The notes under the pieces: model-generated
The model's database searches: none
Told to the model about the DNA's origin: nothing
The model's input: the letters and a program-made list of their open reading frames with translations, nothing else
Source: a virus
Virus genome (UHGV): UHGV-0297460
DNA: 27,542 nucleotides
Reading direction: 5' to 3' (one strand)
Part shown: positions 21,377 to 27,542 of the stretch, in pieces
Position numbering within the stretch: position 1 is the stretch's first letter
How the letters are laid out: every line of letters begins with the position of its first letter
Made by a program: the position numbers and the translations under genes

Positions 21377-22027
21377 ATGAAAACTCAATTGATGGGAGAG
21401 CGCATTCGCGCTCGGAGAAAAGAACTCAAGATCAGGCAGGCCGCACTTGGAAAGATGGTCGGCGTGTCTAATGTTGCCATATCTCAGTGGGAACGCTCTG
21501 AGACAGAGCCAAATGGAGAGAATCTTCTCGCCCTGGCTAATGCGTTGAAGTGTTCCCCTGACTATCTGATGAAAGGAGAGGAAAGTCTTTCAAACATTGC
21601 CTATCACAGTAGGCATGATCCAAGAGGGTCATACCCTCTGATTAGCTGGGTGAGCGCAGGATGCTGGATGGAAGCTGTAGAACCATATCATAAGCGTGCA
21701 ATAGATAACTGGTACGATACAACCGTAGACTGTTCAGAAGATTCGTTTTGGTTGGACGTGAAGGGAGACTCAATGACGGCTCCGGCCGGTCTCAGTATCC
21801 CTGAAGGAATGATAATACTCGTCGATCCTGAAGTAGAGCCGCGTAACGGGAAACTGGTAGTTGCAAAGCTCGAAGGAGAAAACGAGGCAACTTTCAAGAA
21901 GTTAGTTATTGATGCAGGCAGGAAGTTTCTAAAACCACTTAACCCACAATATCCGATGATCGAGATCAACGGAAACTGCAAAATCATCGGCGTAGTTGTC
22001 GATGCAAAACTAGCAAACCTTCCATAA
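21377..22027 (+). CDS. c2: Prophage repressor, P22 C2-type (LexA-like autocleavable)
   Basis: 216 aa, MKTQLMGERIRARRKELKIRQAALGKMVGVSNVAISQWERSETEPNGENLL... near-identical to P22 C2 as recalled; C-terminal S24 peptidase region (GDSM...K). Confidence 0.95.
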   Translation: MKTQLMGERIRARRKELKIRQAALGKMVGVSNVAISQWERSETEPNGENLLALANALKCSPDYLMKGEESLSNIAYHSRHDPRGSYPLISWVSAGCWMEAVEPYHKRAIDNWYDTTVDCSEDSFWLDVKGDSMTAPAGLSIPEGMIILVDPEVEPRNGKLVVAKLEGENEATFKKLVIDAGRKFLKPLNPQYPMIEINGNCKIIGVVVDAKLANLP

Positions 22028-22548: not shown

Positions 22549-22848
22549 ATGACAGTAGTCATTACATATCTGGCTGACGATAACGCCAGAAATCGCCGCA
22601 GAGCACGCAGACAGGCTCAACGTGAACAGGCGATGCAAGAACAGCGACTGGCGCGAAAAATTGCGCTAAAGCTCTCTGGTTGCGTCAGAGCGGATAAAGC
22701 AGCATCACTCGGAATCCTTCGCTGCAAGAAGGCAGATGAAGTCGAGAGTAAACAGAATCGTATTTACTACCGCAAGCCACGCAGTGAAATGGGTGTGACT
22801 TGTGTTGGTCGCCAGAAAATGAAATTAGGCAGCAAACCACTTATTTGA
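22549..22848 (+). CDS. N-like early antiterminator (P22 gp24-like)
   Basis: 99 aa from internal ATG with GGAGG SD; arginine-rich motif DNARNRRRARRQAQREQ near N-terminus; first gene of PL operon. Confidence 0.75.
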   Translation: MTVVITYLADDNARNRRRARRQAQREQAMQEQRLARKIALKLSGCVRADKAASLGILRCKKADEVESKQNRIYYRKPRSEMGVTCVGRQKMKLGSKPLI

Positions 22849-22856
22849 GGTGATAT

Positions 22857-23327
22857 ATGACAAAATCATGGAGCGTACCTTTTCCTGAATCAGAAACTGA
22901 ACATGATGGAATGCCTGTTTTCTGGAGATTCCAAGCGACAGTTGAAGAAGATGGAATCAAAATATTCGCACTTCAATATATAGCTTTTCATCAGACAGAG
23001 CATTATGCATGGTTGGTTCCTGCGCATTGGATTGTTAATTTTAAACCAGCACCAAATCAGTGGTTACAGGAATGGAAACAAAGGAGAAATAGATATGCAA
23101 TTAAGAAAGTAGCAAAAAATGCAGAAAGATCTTTTGCATTCCCGACGAAGAAACTTGCCATTGAAAGTTTATTGCGCCGGAAGAAATACCATTTGATGAG
23201 AATCAAACAAGATTTGGCTGTTGTATCAACTCTTGTTGATGGGATGAAGAATATTGATACATCAACACCAGGTATTGAATATAACTTTGGACACAACCAA
23301 GAAACAGAAAACTGGGTGTTTTATTAG
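22857..23327 (+). CDS. Hypothetical protein (156 aa), low-GC accessory gene downstream of N
   Basis: GAGGTG SD; visibly AT-rich relative to neighbours; followed by its own hairpin and terminator; no family recognised. Confidence 0.55.
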   Translation: MTKSWSVPFPESETEHDGMPVFWRFQATVEEDGIKIFALQYIAFHQTEHYAWLVPAHWIVNFKPAPNQWLQEWKQRRNRYAIKKVAKNAERSFAFPTKKLAIESLLRRKKYHLMRIKQDLAVVSTLVDGMKNIDTSTPGIEYNFGHNQETENWVFY

Positions 23328-23431
23328 TACGAATAAGCACTGTGTATTCATTCCAACGAGTGAATACACGGAGCAATGTCGCTCGTAACTAAACAGGAGC
23401 CGACTTGTTCTGATTATTGGAAATCTTCTTT

Positions 23432-23457
23432 GCCCTCCAGTGTGAGGGCTTTTTTAT
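23432..23457 (+). terminator. Rho-independent terminator (tL1-like)
   Basis: GCCCTC-cagtgt-GAGGGC followed by TTTTTTAT. Confidence 0.65.
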
Positions 23458-23521
23458 ATGCATACCAATAACGCTTCACTCGAGGCGTTTTCGTTATGCA
23501 ATCAAACAGAAGGAGCATCCT

Positions 23522-23692
23522 ATGCAACAGTTCGCTATTGCAGGGGCGGCATCGGTTCGCCCTTTCAACCCGATTTTATCGGTACAGCATTCACGAAAAA
23601 ACATTTTAACCGGAGCAGACTTTAAACAACCAAGAATGAAAAGCTTGCTCGAAAAGCTTTGGGATATTTTGAAACAACAAGGCCGTCCATGA
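23522..23692 (+). CDS. cIII: CIII-like protease-inhibitor peptide (lambda cIII / P22 c3 homolog)
   Basis: 56 aa, MQQFAIAGAASVRPF...SLLEKLWDILKQQGRP parallels lambda CIII MQYAIAG...ESLLERITRKLRDGWKRLIDILNQPGVP; AAGGAG SD. Confidence 0.65.
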   Translation: MQQFAIAGAASVRPFNPILSVQHSRKNILTGADFKQPRMKSLLEKLWDILKQQGRP

Positions 23693-23948: not shown

Positions 23949-24554
23949 ATGAGCAAAGAATTTTACGCAAGACTGGCAGCTATTCAGGAGAATCTGAACG
24001 CGCCAAAGAATCAGTACAACTCATTCGGCAAATATAAATACAGAAGCTGCGAAGATATTCTTGAAGGCGTTAAGCCGTTACTGAACGGTCTGTTTTTATC
24101 AATCAGCGATGAAGTTGTGTTGATTGGTGATCGGTATTACGTGAAAGCCACGGCAACTATTACCGATGGCGAAAACAGTCATACGGCAACCGCTCTTGCA
24201 CGAGAGGAAGAAAGCAAGAAAGGAATGGATTCTGCACAAGTTACGGGAGCTACAAGCTCTTATGCACGCAAGTATTGCCTCAATGGTTTGTTCGGCATTG
24301 ATGATGCGAAAGATGCAGATACAGACGAGCATAAACATCAGCAGAACGCAGCAGCAAAGCAATCAAAACCATCACTTACACCTGAACAGGTTCTAAAAGC
24401 ATTCACTGACGCAGCAATGCAGAAAAACACCGTAGAAGAGCTTAAACAGGCGTTCGCCAAAGCGTGGAAGATGCTCGAAGGGACGCCGGAGCAGCACAAA
24501 GCGCAGGACGTTTACAACATCAGACGAGACGAATTAGAAGGGGCAACTGCTTAA
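23949..24554 (+). CDS. erf: Erf-family single-strand annealing recombination protein
   Basis: Internal start MSKEFYARLAAIQENLNAPKNQYNSFGKYKYRSCEDILEGVKPLLNGLFLSISDEVVLIGDRYYVKATATITDGENSH... matches P22 Erf as recalled. Confidence 0.9.
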   Translation: MSKEFYARLAAIQENLNAPKNQYNSFGKYKYRSCEDILEGVKPLLNGLFLSISDEVVLIGDRYYVKATATITDGENSHTATALAREEESKKGMDSAQVTGATSSYARKYCLNGLFGIDDAKDADTDEHKHQQNAAAKQSKPSLTPEQVLKAFTDAAMQKNTVEELKQAFAKAWKMLEGTPEQHKAQDVYNIRRDELEGATA

Positions 24555-24937
24555 TGGCACATTCGATTACAGTAAGACTAAACAAACCCGCAAGAGAGTT
24601 TCAGGGCGGGGAAAATATCGGATTCAACATCCGTGCTGGCGTTCAGTATTACGATCGCCAGACAAAAAAGAAAGAATGGACAAACTACAGCGCCGTTGTA
24701 TTTGCCAAGCCGGGAGCGCAAGCGGATTACTATCGTAGCGTTCTGGTTGAAGGAGGCATTGTAGAAATTACCGGAGAAAACATCAGGGTTGATGTTTATC
24801 AGGGGCAAAATGGTCAATCAATCACTCTTGAATTACTGAATGCAAAGATTGGATTTGCAACTTCAGGAAACAGCCAACAGCAGCAAAGTAGCAATCATCA
24901 AAATAATCCTGAATACGACGATTCCATCCCATTCTGA
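24554..24937 (+). CDS. Single-stranded DNA-binding protein (SSB-like, acidic C-terminal tail DDSIPF)
   Basis: 127 aa from ATG overlapping erf stop (TAATG); Gln/Ser-rich linker and SSB-type C-terminal tail ...PEYDDSIPF. Confidence 0.7.
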   Translation: MAHSITVRLNKPAREFQGGENIGFNIRAGVQYYDRQTKKKEWTNYSAVVFAKPGAQADYYRSVLVEGGIVEITGENIRVDVYQGQNGQSITLELLNAKIGFATSGNSQQQQSSNHQNNPEYDDSIPF

Positions 24938-24960
24938 TTTAGAAAAATAAGGATTTAATT

Positions 24961-25257
24961 ATGCCAGCGCCTTTGTATGGTGCGGATGACCCGCGCCGCT
25001 GTTCCGGCAATTCCGTATCGGAGGTGCTGGATAAATTCAGAAAAAACTACGATCGAATAATGTCTCTACCGCAGGAAACGAAAGAGGAAAAGGAATTTCG
25101 CCACTGTATATGGCTTGCAGAGAAAGAAGAACGCGAGCGAATTTACCAGACATCAATCCGACCATTCCGCAAAGCCACATATACCCACTTCCCTGAATAT
25201 ATCGACCCGCGCCTGCGTAATTACCGCTCACGCTATGGCGCTATCAGTAATGACTGA
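24961..25257 (+). CDS. Hypothetical protein (98 aa), possibly Abc2-like anti-RecBCD factor (positional guess)
   Basis: AAGGA SD; located after erf/ssb where P22 carries abc genes; sequence identity not verified. Confidence 0.4.
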   Translation: MPAPLYGADDPRRCSGNSVSEVLDKFRKNYDRIMSLPQETKEEKEFRHCIWLAEKEERERIYQTSIRPFRKATYTHFPEYIDPRLRNYRSRYGAISND

Positions 25258-25351
25258 GGAATTTACCATGAGAGGACTTGCTTAAGAGAAAGAGTTTCGG
25301 TTCTGTTAATGACAACAAATATCTGAATGCGATGTGGCGGAGTGGGAAGAA

Positions 25352-25870
25352 ATGAAACAAATGTCACTAATTGAGATGGATGGTTTTCTGAAAGGTAAAT
25401 GCATCCCAAGTGATTTAAAGGTTAACGAAACAAACGCTGAATACCTTGTCCGTAAGTTCGGTGAACTTGAATCAAAACTGGAAACGGCGTTGCGGGAGTG
25501 TAGTTCTGCTGGAATCACGATTGATAACCTTGAGGCTAAATGCGCGAAGATGGCTGCTGAAAATACCTCACTTAAGCAATCTGAGAAGGAATTTAATGAC
25601 TTTTGTCGTGAGGAGTTTAGCGAATGGGAAGATGATGTTACTGAAACCCCAGCCACCGATGCTTTTCTGGCTGAAGTGCGGGCGCAGGGGGTGGATGCTG
25701 CTATAGAAGCTGCAAAAAATCTGGTGGCCCAAGAATATGAGTATAAGGATTTCAAAGCGGCGCAGAGTGATTGCTGTATGCACCCTGGTTCAGACCTGGT
25801 AGGGAAGGTTGAAATGACTGAGTGGTTAGTTGACTTTGCTGCCCAGCTTCGCAAAGGAGGCAACCAGTGA
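25352..25870 (+). CDS. Hypothetical protein (about 172 aa)
   Basis: ATG with GGAG/GGGAAG upstream; acidic coiled-coil-like protein; no family recognised. Confidence 0.45.
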   Translation: MKQMSLIEMDGFLKGKCIPSDLKVNETNAEYLVRKFGELESKLETALRECSSAGITIDNLEAKCAKMAAENTSLKQSEKEFNDFCREEFSEWEDDVTETPATDAFLAEVRAQGVDAAIEAAKNLVAQEYEYKDFKAAQSDCCMHPGSDLVGKVEMTEWLVDFAAQLRKGGNQ

Positions 25871-26166
25871 CTGTATGTCTTATTGATAAACGTCGACGTG
25901 GGCAACAAATACCATCTGTTGAAATGCCGAATCACACATGGTTTTGCGTACTTGATATCGATGGTATGGATACGTTGGTTGACACTCGTCATTACTGCGA
26001 TACCGCAACAGCTACTCCGGCGAAAGCAAAGAAAATGGCTGCTCTGATAGAAAACTGGACTCCACCTGATGGTTGGTGCAATGGGAATGATCGAGATTGG
26101 CACGAAAAAATGAAGGGCTATATCTGCGATTTTTTACGTAAATGCAACGGCTTCAGGGGGATGTGA
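25867..26166 (+). CDS. Hypothetical Cys/Trp-rich protein (99 aa, GTG start)
   Basis: GGAGG 6 nt upstream of GTG that overlaps the preceding stop (GTGA). Confidence 0.45.
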   Translation: MTVCLIDKRRRGQQIPSVEMPNHTWFCVLDIDGMDTLVDTRHYCDTATATPAKAKKMAALIENWTPPDGWCNGNDRDWHEKMKGYICDFLRKCNGFRGM

Positions 26167-26167
26167 T

Positions 26168-26740
26168 ATGACCAAAATTAACTATCAGGCACTGCGTGAG
26201 GCGGCAGAACGTGCAATTCCGGCAATGGAACGCCTGTTAATGTTGCCAGTTGATGATGATTTGTTAAGTGAACAGGAACTTAAGGATTACGGTGTGGATA
26301 TTGATGCGCTCAACGCCTTCAAATTTCTGACCGGACCAGAAACCGTGCTGGCGCTGCTGGATGAACGGGAAAGAAACCAGCAATACATCAAACGCCGCGA
26401 CCAGGAGAACGAGGAAATTGCGCTAACGGTAGGGAAGCTGCGCGTTGAGCTGGAAGCTGCAGAGAAGCGCATTGCAGAACTGGAAGCCGAACCTGTAAGC
26501 CAAACTTACAAGTTGAACGAGCTGTCGGGCAACTATCCGGTAACTCCGGATGGTTGGATAAGCTGTAGTGAGCGAATGCCCGCTCAAGATGATTGGATTT
26601 TAATTTATTCAAAGCACGGCGAGTATATGGCAGGACAGGTACAAGGGGAATACGTGGAGTTGAGCGACGGCACTTTATCGTGGTTAGGGAACGCCTTGTA
26701 CTGGATGCCTCTACCGGAACCGCCGCAGGAGGTTAATTGA
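26168..26740 (+). CDS. Ead/Ea22-like protein with C-terminal DUF551-like domain
   Basis: 190 aa; coiled-coil N-terminus and C-terminal ...PDGWISCSERMPAQDDWILIYSKHGEYMAG...WMPLPEPP recalled from lambdoid early-left region proteins. Confidence 0.55.
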   Translation: MTKINYQALREAAERAIPAMERLLMLPVDDDLLSEQELKDYGVDIDALNAFKFLTGPETVLALLDERERNQQYIKRRDQENEEIALTVGKLRVELEAAEKRIAELEAEPVSQTYKLNELSGNYPVTPDGWISCSERMPAQDDWILIYSKHGEYMAGQVQGEYVELSDGTLSWLGNALYWMPLPEPPQEVN

Positions 26741-26934
26741 TGGTCTCCTTCGCGAAATATACGATTATTGACTGGATAGCATTCATTCAGGTTTTGCTCA
26801 TCTGGTTTTATATGGCTTACAGGAGTGGACAGTGGATTGTCAGTGTAGCCTGTAGCAATGGATGGCGTTGGTGGAACCGAAAGAATAAAAAAAGCGCTGG
26901 CCTTGGCTTCGTTTTACGAAGCATTCAATCTTAA
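26737..26934 (+). CDS. Small membrane protein (65 aa)
   Basis: Hydrophobic/aromatic core; start overlaps upstream stop. Confidence 0.4.
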   Translation: MMVSFAKYTIIDWIAFIQVLLIWFYMAYRSGQWIVSVACSNGWRWWNRKNKKSAGLGFVLRSIQS

Positions 26935-27017
26935 CAGTCTTCAGCCTGGTTCTGTCGTTGTAGTCACCACTCAAAGCGGCATGACGATACAAATTCACAA
27001 GCCAAAGGAGGAAGGTC

Positions 27018-27302
27018 GTGGCTAACCTGCAACTTGCCGTTAAAGGTGAATACTTCGATGCCATGATTCGCGGAGAGAAAACGGAAGAGTATCGCCTGTG
27101 TAATGACTACTGGAATAAGCGAATTATGTTCCGCGAGTATGACCGCCTGATTATCACAAAGGGATATCCGAAGCGCGACGATTCCAGCCGCAGAATTGAC
27201 GTCCCGTATGACGGATATGAAATCAAGACAATCACACATCCGCACTTCGGCGATAAACCGGTAAAGGTGTTCGCTATAAAGGTGAATATCGACAATGAAT
27301 GA
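27018..27302 (+). CDS. ASCH/PUA-like small protein (94 aa, GTG start)
   Basis: AGGAGG SD; ...AVKGEYFDAMIRGEKTEEYR... beta-barrel-like motif; family call tentative. Confidence 0.45.
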   Translation: MANLQLAVKGEYFDAMIRGEKTEEYRLCNDYWNKRIMFREYDRLIITKGYPKRDDSSRRIDVPYDGYEIKTITHPHFGDKPVKVFAIKVNIDNE

Positions 27303-27374
27303 TAATCCTCGCACTCGCGGGGATTTCTTTTATCTGAACTCGCTACGGCGGGTTTTGTTTTATGGAGATGATAA

Positions 27375-27542
27375 ATGCACTTCCGAGTCACAGGTGAATG
27401 GAATGGAGAGCCATTCAACAGAGTTATCGAAGCAGAGAACATCAACGACTGCTATGACCACTGGATGCTGTGGGCGCAGATAGCACATGCAGACGTAACT
27501 AATATTCGAATTGAAGAACTGAAAGAACACCAAGCCGCCTGA
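27375..27542 (+). CDS. Small hypothetical protein (55 aa), ends at window edge
   Basis: Own translation MHFRVTGEWNGEPFNRVIEAENINDCYDHWMLWAQIAHADVTNIRIEELKEHQAA; GGAGATG SD; below the track cutoff. Confidence 0.4.
   Translation: MHFRVTGEWNGEPFNRVIEAENINDCYDHWMLWAQIAHADVTNIRIEELKEHQAA

Follow-up and report, generated by a model that had tools for sequence, protein, structure and literature searches.

A probable early-left cargo cluster from abc2 up to the excisionase gene of a CUS-3-type prophage

The virus genome UHGV-0297460 comprises 27,542 nucleotides (nt), the whole of which we refer to as the window. At its downstream end, positions 24961-27542 of the plus strand hold a run of small genes that an initial annotation, made from the letters alone, had described as an accessory cluster with largely unassigned functions. 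We report that this region very probably comes from a P22-like (Lederbergvirus) prophage of the CUS-3 type, in which it forms the promoter-distal portion of the early-left (PL) operon and carries non-core cargo that would be expressed early after infection or induction. Since it is bounded by a recombination module and the excisionase gene xis, the cluster is the counterpart of the P22 abc2-ea and lambda exo-xis regions, a type of cluster described for decades and thus already known. It comprises one gene of known mechanism (abc2), one member of a partly studied family (Ea22), four intact orphans and two decayed genes.

Identity, gene order and expression

A megablast search of phage records returned Enterobacteria phage CUS-3 (CP000711.1, 37589-40169) as the full-length match to 24961-27542, with a single gap—one extra A in the window—as the sole difference; phiv205-1 matched at 99.9%. 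All 2582 bases recur at 100.0% in at least 20 Escherichia coli chromosomes, including those of APEC O1 and the type strain ATCC 11775, and the APEC O1 prophage is 99.98% identical to the window from 21962 to the window end. This sequence identity rules out a non-prophage origin of the window. CUS-3 itself is a P22-like prophage of E. coli RS218 that O-acetylates the K1 capsule. Complete E. coli genomes with 80% or more of the region numbered 110, and some part of it was present in 3863 of 5426, yet only two of 591 matching phage records held at least 80%. With single genes very common and so few phage records carrying most of the region, the combination is specific to CUS-3-type prophages, which is the mosaic pattern usual for lambdoid phages. 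As judged from sequence comparison, the region is known, already sequenced and annotated DNA, with every gene in an existing Pfam or PHROG family. Because the DNA, the gene calls and all seven families are in public databases, we regard the region as ordinary rather than new, and nothing found in it pointed to a system of a new kind. Its features are as follows.

24961-25257, plus strand: abc2 (hkaJ), anti-RecBCD protein 2, 98 amino acids (PF11043, phrog_656)
25268-25355, plus strand: relic of a DUF2737 gene (homologue of P22 orf56 and HK97 gp38) with a 77-bp deletion, in the 94-nt gap between abc2 and hkaH
25352-25870, plus strand: hkaH, acidic EaE-like mosaic coiled-coil protein, 172 amino acids (phrog_614, E=9e-66)
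25867-26166, plus strand: DUF7739 protein, 99 amino acids (PF24881), the 'Cys/Trp-rich' reading frame; its GTG start overlaps the hkaH stop
26168-26740, plus strand: protein of 190 amino acids with Ead/Ea22-like N-terminus and coiled coil, and C-terminal DUF551 (YfdS-type)
26740-27025, plus strand: DUF4752 gene, a frameshifted pseudogene in two fragments (26740-26934, with the reading-frame call from 26737, and 26858-27025)
26887-26893, plus strand: A7 homopolymer causing the DUF4752 frameshift (A6 in CUS-3 and phiv205-1)
27018-27302, plus strand: ASCH-domain protein, 94 amino acids (phrog_625, E=1e-51; RefSeq annotation ASCH)
27304-27365, plus strand: two tandem terminator-like hairpins (27304-27335 and 27336-27365), each followed by a U-run
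27375-27542, plus strand: 55-amino-acid gene, homologue of lambda lambdap35, the reading frame just upstream of xis (phrog_676, E=4e-40)

Gene order and junctions bear out the earlier description of a tightly packed plus-strand run of open reading frames (ORFs) after erf and ssb. All retained ORFs show a Shine-Dalgarno-like sequence and match a family hidden Markov model (HMM), the E values being 6e-11 or better. The junctions are TAATG (erf/ssb), a 23-nt gap (ssb/abc2), a 94-nt gap (abc2/hkaH), GTGA (hkaH/DUF7739), TGAnATG (DUF7739/ead), TGATG (ead/DUF4752), an 8-nt overlap (DUF4752/ASCH) and a 72-nt gap before the 55-amino-acid gene. Of the two overlap types initially proposed, GTGA is found at 25867-25870, between hkaH and the DUF7739 gene, whereas ATGA occurs only in a probably spurious 62-amino-acid ORF (27295-27483). 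This ORF was rejected as a gene, being without a Pfam, PHROGs or NCBIfam match and overlapping both the hairpins and the lambdap35-like gene. Upstream, the window holds the following genes.

21377-22027, plus strand (the cluster's strand): cI-type repressor
22549-22848, plus strand: N-like antiterminator (phrog_271, E=3e-36)
23949-24554, plus strand: erf
24554-24937, plus strand: SSB-like gene (phrog_44, E=3e-29), with C-terminal DDSIPF

The order is thus cI, N-like gene, erf, ssb, the cluster and then torI, the last being read from the identical APEC O1 prophage, in which the next gene past the window end encodes a torI-type excisionase and is followed by dsdC. A scan for sigma-70-like promoters in 24400-27542 returned none, compared to 4.8 ± 1.9 expected from shuffled sequences, consistent with operon-internal DNA. 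Given the shared strand with cI and the N-like gene and the lack of internal sigma-70-like promoters, we infer from lambdoid biology that the cluster would be silent in the lysogen and form part of a delayed-early, N-antiterminated message after infection or induction. This transcript would not end at the tandem hairpins but continue across the lambdap35-like gene and into the gene of the torI-type excisionase past the window. In lambdoid phages, N-modified polymerase reads through such terminator sites.

Comparison with known phages places the cluster in a recurrent slot. The order is erf-abc1-abc2-orf56-eaE-orf45-eaF-eaD-eaI-eaA-eaG-eaC-xis-int in P22, erf-ssb-abc2-DUF2737-EaE-like-(Ea cassettes)-DUF4752-(ASCH in HF4s)-p35-xis-int in HK106 and HF4s, and exo-orf60a-orf63-orf61-ea22-ea8.5-lambdap35-xis-int in lambda. 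In all four comparators xis ends the region, and all but lambda follow the scheme erf-(ssb/abc1)-abc2-...-xis. P22 belongs to the same virus genus and shares operon, order and strand logic with the window, and its abc2 (93% identity) as well as its orf56/DUF2737, EaE, EaD and EaA (DUF551) modules are recognizable there. Unlike P22, the window has an SSB-like gene in place of abc1, a deleted DUF2737 gene, an hkaH sharing only a central segment with EaE, and, just past its end, a torI-type excisionase gene rather than P22 xis; P22, in turn, is devoid of DUF7739, DUF4752, ASCH and an intact p35-like gene.

The lambda exo-xis region occupies the same slot between recombination genes and xis and shares the hairpins upstream of lambdap35, lambdap35 itself (98% identity) and the Ea22 N-terminal/coiled-coil module (54% over 104 amino acids). 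However, the window has no counterparts of orf60a, orf61, orf63 and ea8.5, its Ea22-like protein ends in DUF551 instead of the lambda C-terminal domain, and its recombination genes are of the Erf/SSB/Abc2 type as opposed to Exo/Bet/Gam. HF4s, HK106 and Salmonella phage ST104 (ORF6-ORF10) show nearly the same order—abc2-DUF2737-EaE-like-Ea-type-DUF4752-ASCH-p35-xis—with 91-98% protein identity for abc2, DUF4752, ASCH and p35. They differ in having intact DUF2737 and DUF4752 genes and other middle cassettes (EaD/EaA, HK620p07-like); the HF4s and HK106 loci are without DUF7739, and HK106 carries a gene named queuine tRNA-ribosyltransferase where the window has ASCH. A further likeness is to the right end of KplE1/CPS-53 in E. 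coli K-12 (yfdS ... torI, argW-dsdC), which we take, from annotation names and the K-12 layout rather than from sequence alignment, to share the chromosomal site (dsdC follows torI in APEC O1), a right end with a torI-type excisionase, a left end with an integrase and a DUF551 'YfdS family' protein; KplE1/CPS-53 is a short remnant, whereas the window represents a full P22-like prophage.

Genes of the cluster

The first gene is abc2. Its product matches PF11043 over its full length (206.8 bits against a cutoff of 25, E=4e-62; residues 1-98 on profile positions 1-97) and P22 Abc2 in the PDB (8b1t_A, E=1e-56; structures 8b1t/8b1u, solved on RecBCD). The gene lies directly downstream of the recombinase genes (erf, ssb-like, abc2), as it does in P22, HK106 and HF4s. 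P22 Abc2 binds, as an extended helical protein, to the Chi-recognition ('inactivated helicase') domains of RecC, the RecC-binding helical region being residues 3-66 in 8b1t/8b1u; it recruits the host prolyl isomerase PpiB via Pro68, a proposed PpiB substrate, and, instead of blocking RecBCD, appears to press it into the service of the phage recombinase (eLife 2022, PMC9836394). Residues 1-66 of the window's Abc2 are identical to 8b1t_A at 64 of 66 positions (the differences being R32/L and S65/A), and Pro68 is kept. This identity over the ordered RecC-binding region, together with Pro68, argues for transferring the P22 mechanism, and we have high confidence that the window's protein would share it. 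Abc2 and PpiB on RecC would then redirect host RecBCD for phage Erf/SSB recombination, as the 93% identity to P22 Abc2 suggests.

The initial annotation had pointed out that such regions often hold host-takeover functions, and the first gene of the cluster indeed turned out to be one of the best characterized of this kind. The description of the functions as largely unassigned overlooked this gene and the partly studied Ea22 family, but it is correct in that five of the seven gene families are still without an experimentally assigned function. A filamentation hit in UTI89 spanning hkaJ/hkaH was considered as an effect of these genes and discarded, as the neighboring kil2 explains it.

Downstream of abc2, the DUF2737 gene is reduced to a 5-codon stub (MRGLA*, 25268-25285) and an out-of-frame C-terminal remnant sharing 96% identity with the end of HK106 gp34. 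Compared to HK106 and HF4s, a clean 77-bp deletion lies between the direct repeats GAGAGGAcTTGC and GAGAGGAaTTGC; it is also present in the CUS-3 reference, and RefSeq lists the relic in APEC O1 as an incomplete pseudogene.

The next gene, hkaH, belongs to a very large group, with at least 7840 homologue clusters, but has no Pfam family. Its start was set to the ATG at 25352 because all homologues begin with MKQM(S/T)LIEMDGF. The protein (isoelectric point (pI) 4.5) combines a constant N-terminal portion of ~70 amino acids, a TPATDAFLAEVRAQGV motif and a FAAQLRKGGNQ end with a hypervariable, indel-rich middle. Residues 60-113 share 64% identity with P22 EaE, and over its entire length the protein reaches 74% with HK106 gp33. 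It looks like a further coiled-coil protein that swaps cassettes. In NCBI records, many of the hkaH/EaE-like homologues go by the name 'hNH endonuclease'. We dismissed this name, as no HNH signal was obtained from Pfam even at E values of up to 10; the label is likely a name-propagation error.

The DUF7739 protein matches PF24881 over its full length (77.6 bits against a cutoff of 27, residues 1-96), and its GTG start is preceded by AGGAGG 7 nt upstream. Family members are stand-alone proteins of ~95 amino acids and few in number, with 46 clusters at 90% identity and 72 representatives at 50% among 1.84 billion. The ORF had initially been singled out as Cys/Trp-rich, and we do count six Cys and four Trp. 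Yet with N22, D45, W70, F89, C93, G95 and F96 as the only conserved residues, this richness is a trait of the window's member and not of the DUF7739 family. In distant phages the gene is again found early-left, following a cI-like repressor near rdgC in Plesiomonas and ERF-SSB elsewhere. Two roles suggested by composition or fold were rejected: zinc binding through the six cysteines, as C93 alone is conserved and no CxxC pattern is present, and DNA mimicry after the top fold match, DMP12, in view of a pI of 7.6. The fold matches are weak and derive from one confident model, which matched only a fragment of its own family in a Foldseek search of BFVD. DUF7739 would be a small stand-alone alpha/beta protein, perhaps a binder or inhibitor of a host protein.

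For the following gene, the proposed Ea22/DUF551 label was confirmed by Pfam: residues 3-104 match PF13935 (104.3 bits against a cutoff of 27, E=1e-29) and residues 129-187 match PF04448 (43.5 bits, E=6e-11). The 54% identity to lambda Ea22 spans residues 1-104; past residue 104, no similarity to the lambda-type Ea22 C-terminal domain was found and DUF551 takes its place. Segments of the protein also match P22 EaD, the EaA C-terminus and orf87. Ea22 proteins are reported to form tetramers and to exchange their C-terminal domains; that of lambda Ea22 has a nuclear magnetic resonance (NMR) structure, and the Stx-phage variant 'V2', to which the window's protein corresponds, carries DUF551 (PMC10834534). 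Ea22 of lambda and Stx phages is pro-lysogenic (PMC7093339). By analogy, an oligomeric Ea22-type coiled coil with a DUF551 head would bias the lysis-lysogeny decision.

The 'small membrane proteins' of the initial annotation proved to be two halves of one DUF4752 gene, split by an extra A. While the CUS-3 (A6) allele matches PF15944 with 117 bits (E=3e-34), the additional A in the window shifts the frame after residue 51 of a family of ~94 amino acids and truncates the protein; RefSeq flags the APEC O1 gene as 'frameshifted'. The membrane impression stems from the N-terminal fragment, which retains the hydrophobic segment of DUF4752 (residues 8-26, mean Kyte-Doolittle hydropathy 1.8). DUF4752 would be a small protein with an N-terminal hydrophobic helix, here inactivated by the +1 A frameshift. 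The exact A7 81-mer is present in 30 complete E. coli genomes, including the Sanger-era assemblies of APEC O1 and S88, which identifies it as a real inherited allele and not a read error; the exact A6 80-mer is present in 112. Among the near-identical copies in E. coli, roughly one in five carries the frameshift allele.

Two of the original nine cassettes have therefore decayed—through the DUF2737 deletion and the DUF4752 frameshift—as expected of dispensable cargo in a resident prophage. Deletions of the P22 ea and lambda exo-xis regions show these to be dispensable for plaque formation, and dispensability of the cluster fits the two decayed cassettes, if indirectly. Two genomes deserve mention with respect to the A tract. 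MS7163 (NZ_CP026853.1, 2572685-2575265) carries the A7 allele, yet its whole-region match is one base shorter than the query, implying a second single-base indel somewhere in its cluster. ExPEC XM (NZ_CP025328.1) has both alleles in two prophages, A7 at ~2.665 Mb and A6 at ~2.824 Mb. As a lesser possibility, the A6/A7 tract could be a slippage-prone DUF4752 switch; the CUS-3-type prophage is already known for phase-variable neuO.

The ASCH/PUA-like label of the following ORF is right by fold and motif, despite a Pfam score below threshold. The 94-amino-acid protein has the beta-barrel ASCH/PUA-like fold and, between helix 1 and strand 2, a GKER-type GxKxxExR octapeptide (G19-E-K21-T-E-E24-Y-R26) whose G19, K21, E24 and R26 are invariant in 28 homologues. 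This octapeptide defines the ASCH motif (PMC6803910), and ASCH proteins of the GKTR and GKER subtypes are reported to deacetylate N4-acetylcytidine (ac4C) in tRNA, with Lys and Glu being essential (2026 preprint, bioRxiv 10.64898/2026.02.27.708502). By analogy, the window's protein would most likely be an RNA or nucleoside binder, possibly an ac4C deacetylase. In HK106, the slot after DUF4752 holds gp29, a 266-amino-acid protein named queuine tRNA-ribosyltransferase in RefSeq, with the 29-codon hypothetical ORF gp30 in between; genes with a link to nucleic-acid modification may be favored at this position. The minus strand carries, wholly antisense to the DUF4752 3' end and the ASCH gene, a 116-amino-acid ORF (26964-27314) corresponding to CUS-3 ECRS218_0062 (phrog_20945, E=3e-64), which is probably a propagated over-annotation and not a gene.

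The hairpins, the lambdap35-like gene and the flanks

The segment with the tandem hairpins folds at -27.3 kcal/mol (z = -4.2), and both hairpins are kept almost base for base in lambda and HF4s. The second corresponds to a predicted lambda terminator (Bloch et al., PMC4195576, Table 4). A third predicted terminator overlaps the stop codon of the 55-amino-acid gene (PMC4195576), with its stem extending past the window end. Rfam returned only a sub-threshold match to RsmY (19.7 bits versus 57, E = 0.16), which we took as chance.

The 55-amino-acid protein is identical to lambda NP_597778 at 54 of 55 positions. Its gene is present in 87 phage records and adjoins xis wherever looked at, and diverged homologues at 77%, 51% and 36% protein identity support its being coding; no mention of it was found in the literature searched. 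Between window 27304-27542 and lambda 29118-29370, the hairpins and the ORF are near-identical DNA, shared by CUS-3-type prophages, lambda, HF4s and HK106. A manual count gives six differences in the 168 nt of the ORF relative to lambda, whereas the flanking genes differ. In HK106 a different hairpin replaces the first one, followed by the same T-run. In P22, a 25-codon relic (64% identical) of the lambdap35-like C-terminus lies between eaG and eaC, beside the annotated aI RNA terminator. The hairpins and the ORF thus represent a very conserved, unstudied module adjoining xis.

Further observations concern the flanks. The GenBank record of CUS-3 ends at a 16-bp 'attR core' (TTGCAGGTTCGATTCC), 23 bp past the p35-like gene. 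At the corresponding place, APEC O1, phiv205-1 and the free phage HF4s have a 201-nt torI-type excisionase gene, and the sequence truly common with the CUS-3 left end is CTGCAGGGGACACCATT, located after torI. As judged from these relatives, the deposited CUS-3 record probably misses its own excisionase gene and misplaces attR. On the other side of the cluster, the interval from the N-like gene to erf (window 22860-23688) differs from the CUS-3 reference, 0.83 kb replacing 2.2 kb. The 2.2 kb of CUS-3 comprise ral, three hypothetical genes, cIII and kil; the replacement holds a 156-amino-acid phrog_1636 ORF (22857-23327) and a cIII-like ORF (23522-23692, phrog_550), and no kil or ral homologue was seen in this interval.

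Possible roles of the cargo

Several points weigh against the account given so far. The transcription model is drawn from analogy with lambda and P22, and the hairpin pattern scan by itself was at chance (3 found versus 2.9 expected). With respect to the ASCH protein, Pfam ASCH (PF04266) did not reach its gathering score (14.3 versus 21.2 bits), with only residues 6-28 aligned, and the ac4C-eraser activity of the GKER type comes from a preprint only, while an earlier report cited there disagrees (bioRxiv 10.64898/2026.02.27.708502).

Within the reading as early-left cargo of the PL operon, different purposes of the genes can be envisaged. Like the lambda and Stx-phage exo-xis genes, they could act as modulators of lysis-lysogeny and host physiology, tuning lysogenization frequency, induction efficiency and host survival, an idea we entertain tentatively and would not call probable. 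The slot between recombination genes and xis is that of the exo-xis region, with which the ea22 N-terminal/coiled-coil module and lambdap35 are held in common, and the pro-lysogenic role of Ea22 in lambda and Stx phages, the latter with the DUF551-bearing V2 variant, points in the same direction, as does the link of the DUF551 protein YfdS to oxidative-stress tolerance (cited in PMC10834534). However, those lambda genes whose phenotypes are clearest (orf60a, orf61, orf63 and ea8.5) are without a counterpart, a tblastn comparison to the lambda locus having matched only ea22 and p35; the C-terminal domain is unlike that of lambda Ea22, and no phenotype of a P22-type ea gene was found in the literature examined. 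That the cluster is instead a counter-defense island, in which, besides abc2, at least one of hkaH, DUF7739, Ea22-DUF551, ASCH and the p35-like protein inhibits an anti-phage system (through anti-restriction, anti-CRISPR, anti-abortive-infection or similar activity), appears rather doubtful to us. The genes are small, fast-shuffling cassettes adjoining the proven host-takeover gene abc2, Silas et al. treat Abc2 and its neighborhood as a counter-defense accessory region, and hkaH, Ea22-DUF551 and p35 are strongly acidic (pI 4.4-4.9). Yet no named anti-defense family was matched in Pfam, PHROGs or NCBIfam, and of the families present here the accessory-gene screens of Silas et al. mention Abc2, along with Abc1, and none of the others. 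No account of DUF4752 or DUF7739 was found in the literature searched; the near-neutral DUF7739 is unlike a DNA mimic, its fold matches are weak and come from a single confident model, and two cassettes have been left to decay. For genes other than abc2, we thus found no evidence of the anti-restriction or anti-CRISPR functions suggested initially. Nothing computed separates a role in counter-defense from one in the lysis-lysogeny decision.

It seems quite improbable, on the other hand, that most of the cluster has no function and hitch-hikes in a domesticated prophage, its ORFs persisting only through recent acquisition. Two of nine cassettes are inactivated (by the 77-bp deletion and the A7 frameshift), the frameshift allele has spread to 30 complete genomes, and P22 retains only the 25-codon relic of the p35-like gene, all of which speaks for this reading. 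But the other six ORFs are unbroken, and their starts, Shine-Dalgarno sequences and invariant residues are kept across hundreds to thousands of homologue clusters; the free-living phages HF4s, HK106 and lambda have the same genes, and the operon position of DUF7739 is kept in distant Plesiomonas prophages. Conservation of this kind speaks against reading the cluster as nothing but baggage.

Neither NCBIfam nor PADLOC returned anything useful for the nine candidate proteins, and PDB sequence and profile searches with hkaH, DUF7739, Ea22-DUF551, DUF4752, ASCH and p35 yielded no significant match. A literature lead, 'ORF55', proved to be an unrelated phage T5 protein. That one or more of the intact orphans encode a new host-takeover or counter-defense factor seems unlikely to us. 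The most concrete takeover candidate is the ASCH protein, which could, early in infection, act as an ac4C eraser on host tRNA or RNA; another option would be DUF7739 as a new, small inhibitor of a host protein, its fold being DMP12/CdiI-like.

The value of these results lies in curation rather than discovery: abc2 is identified, the 'membrane' ORFs are recognized as a pseudogene, the DUF2737 relic is uncovered and the ASCH label is structurally confirmed. At the same time, they draw attention to widespread lambdoid genes that are open to cheap experiments—hkaH/EaE with its more than 7800 clusters, the ASCH family, and lambdap35, even in lambda itself.

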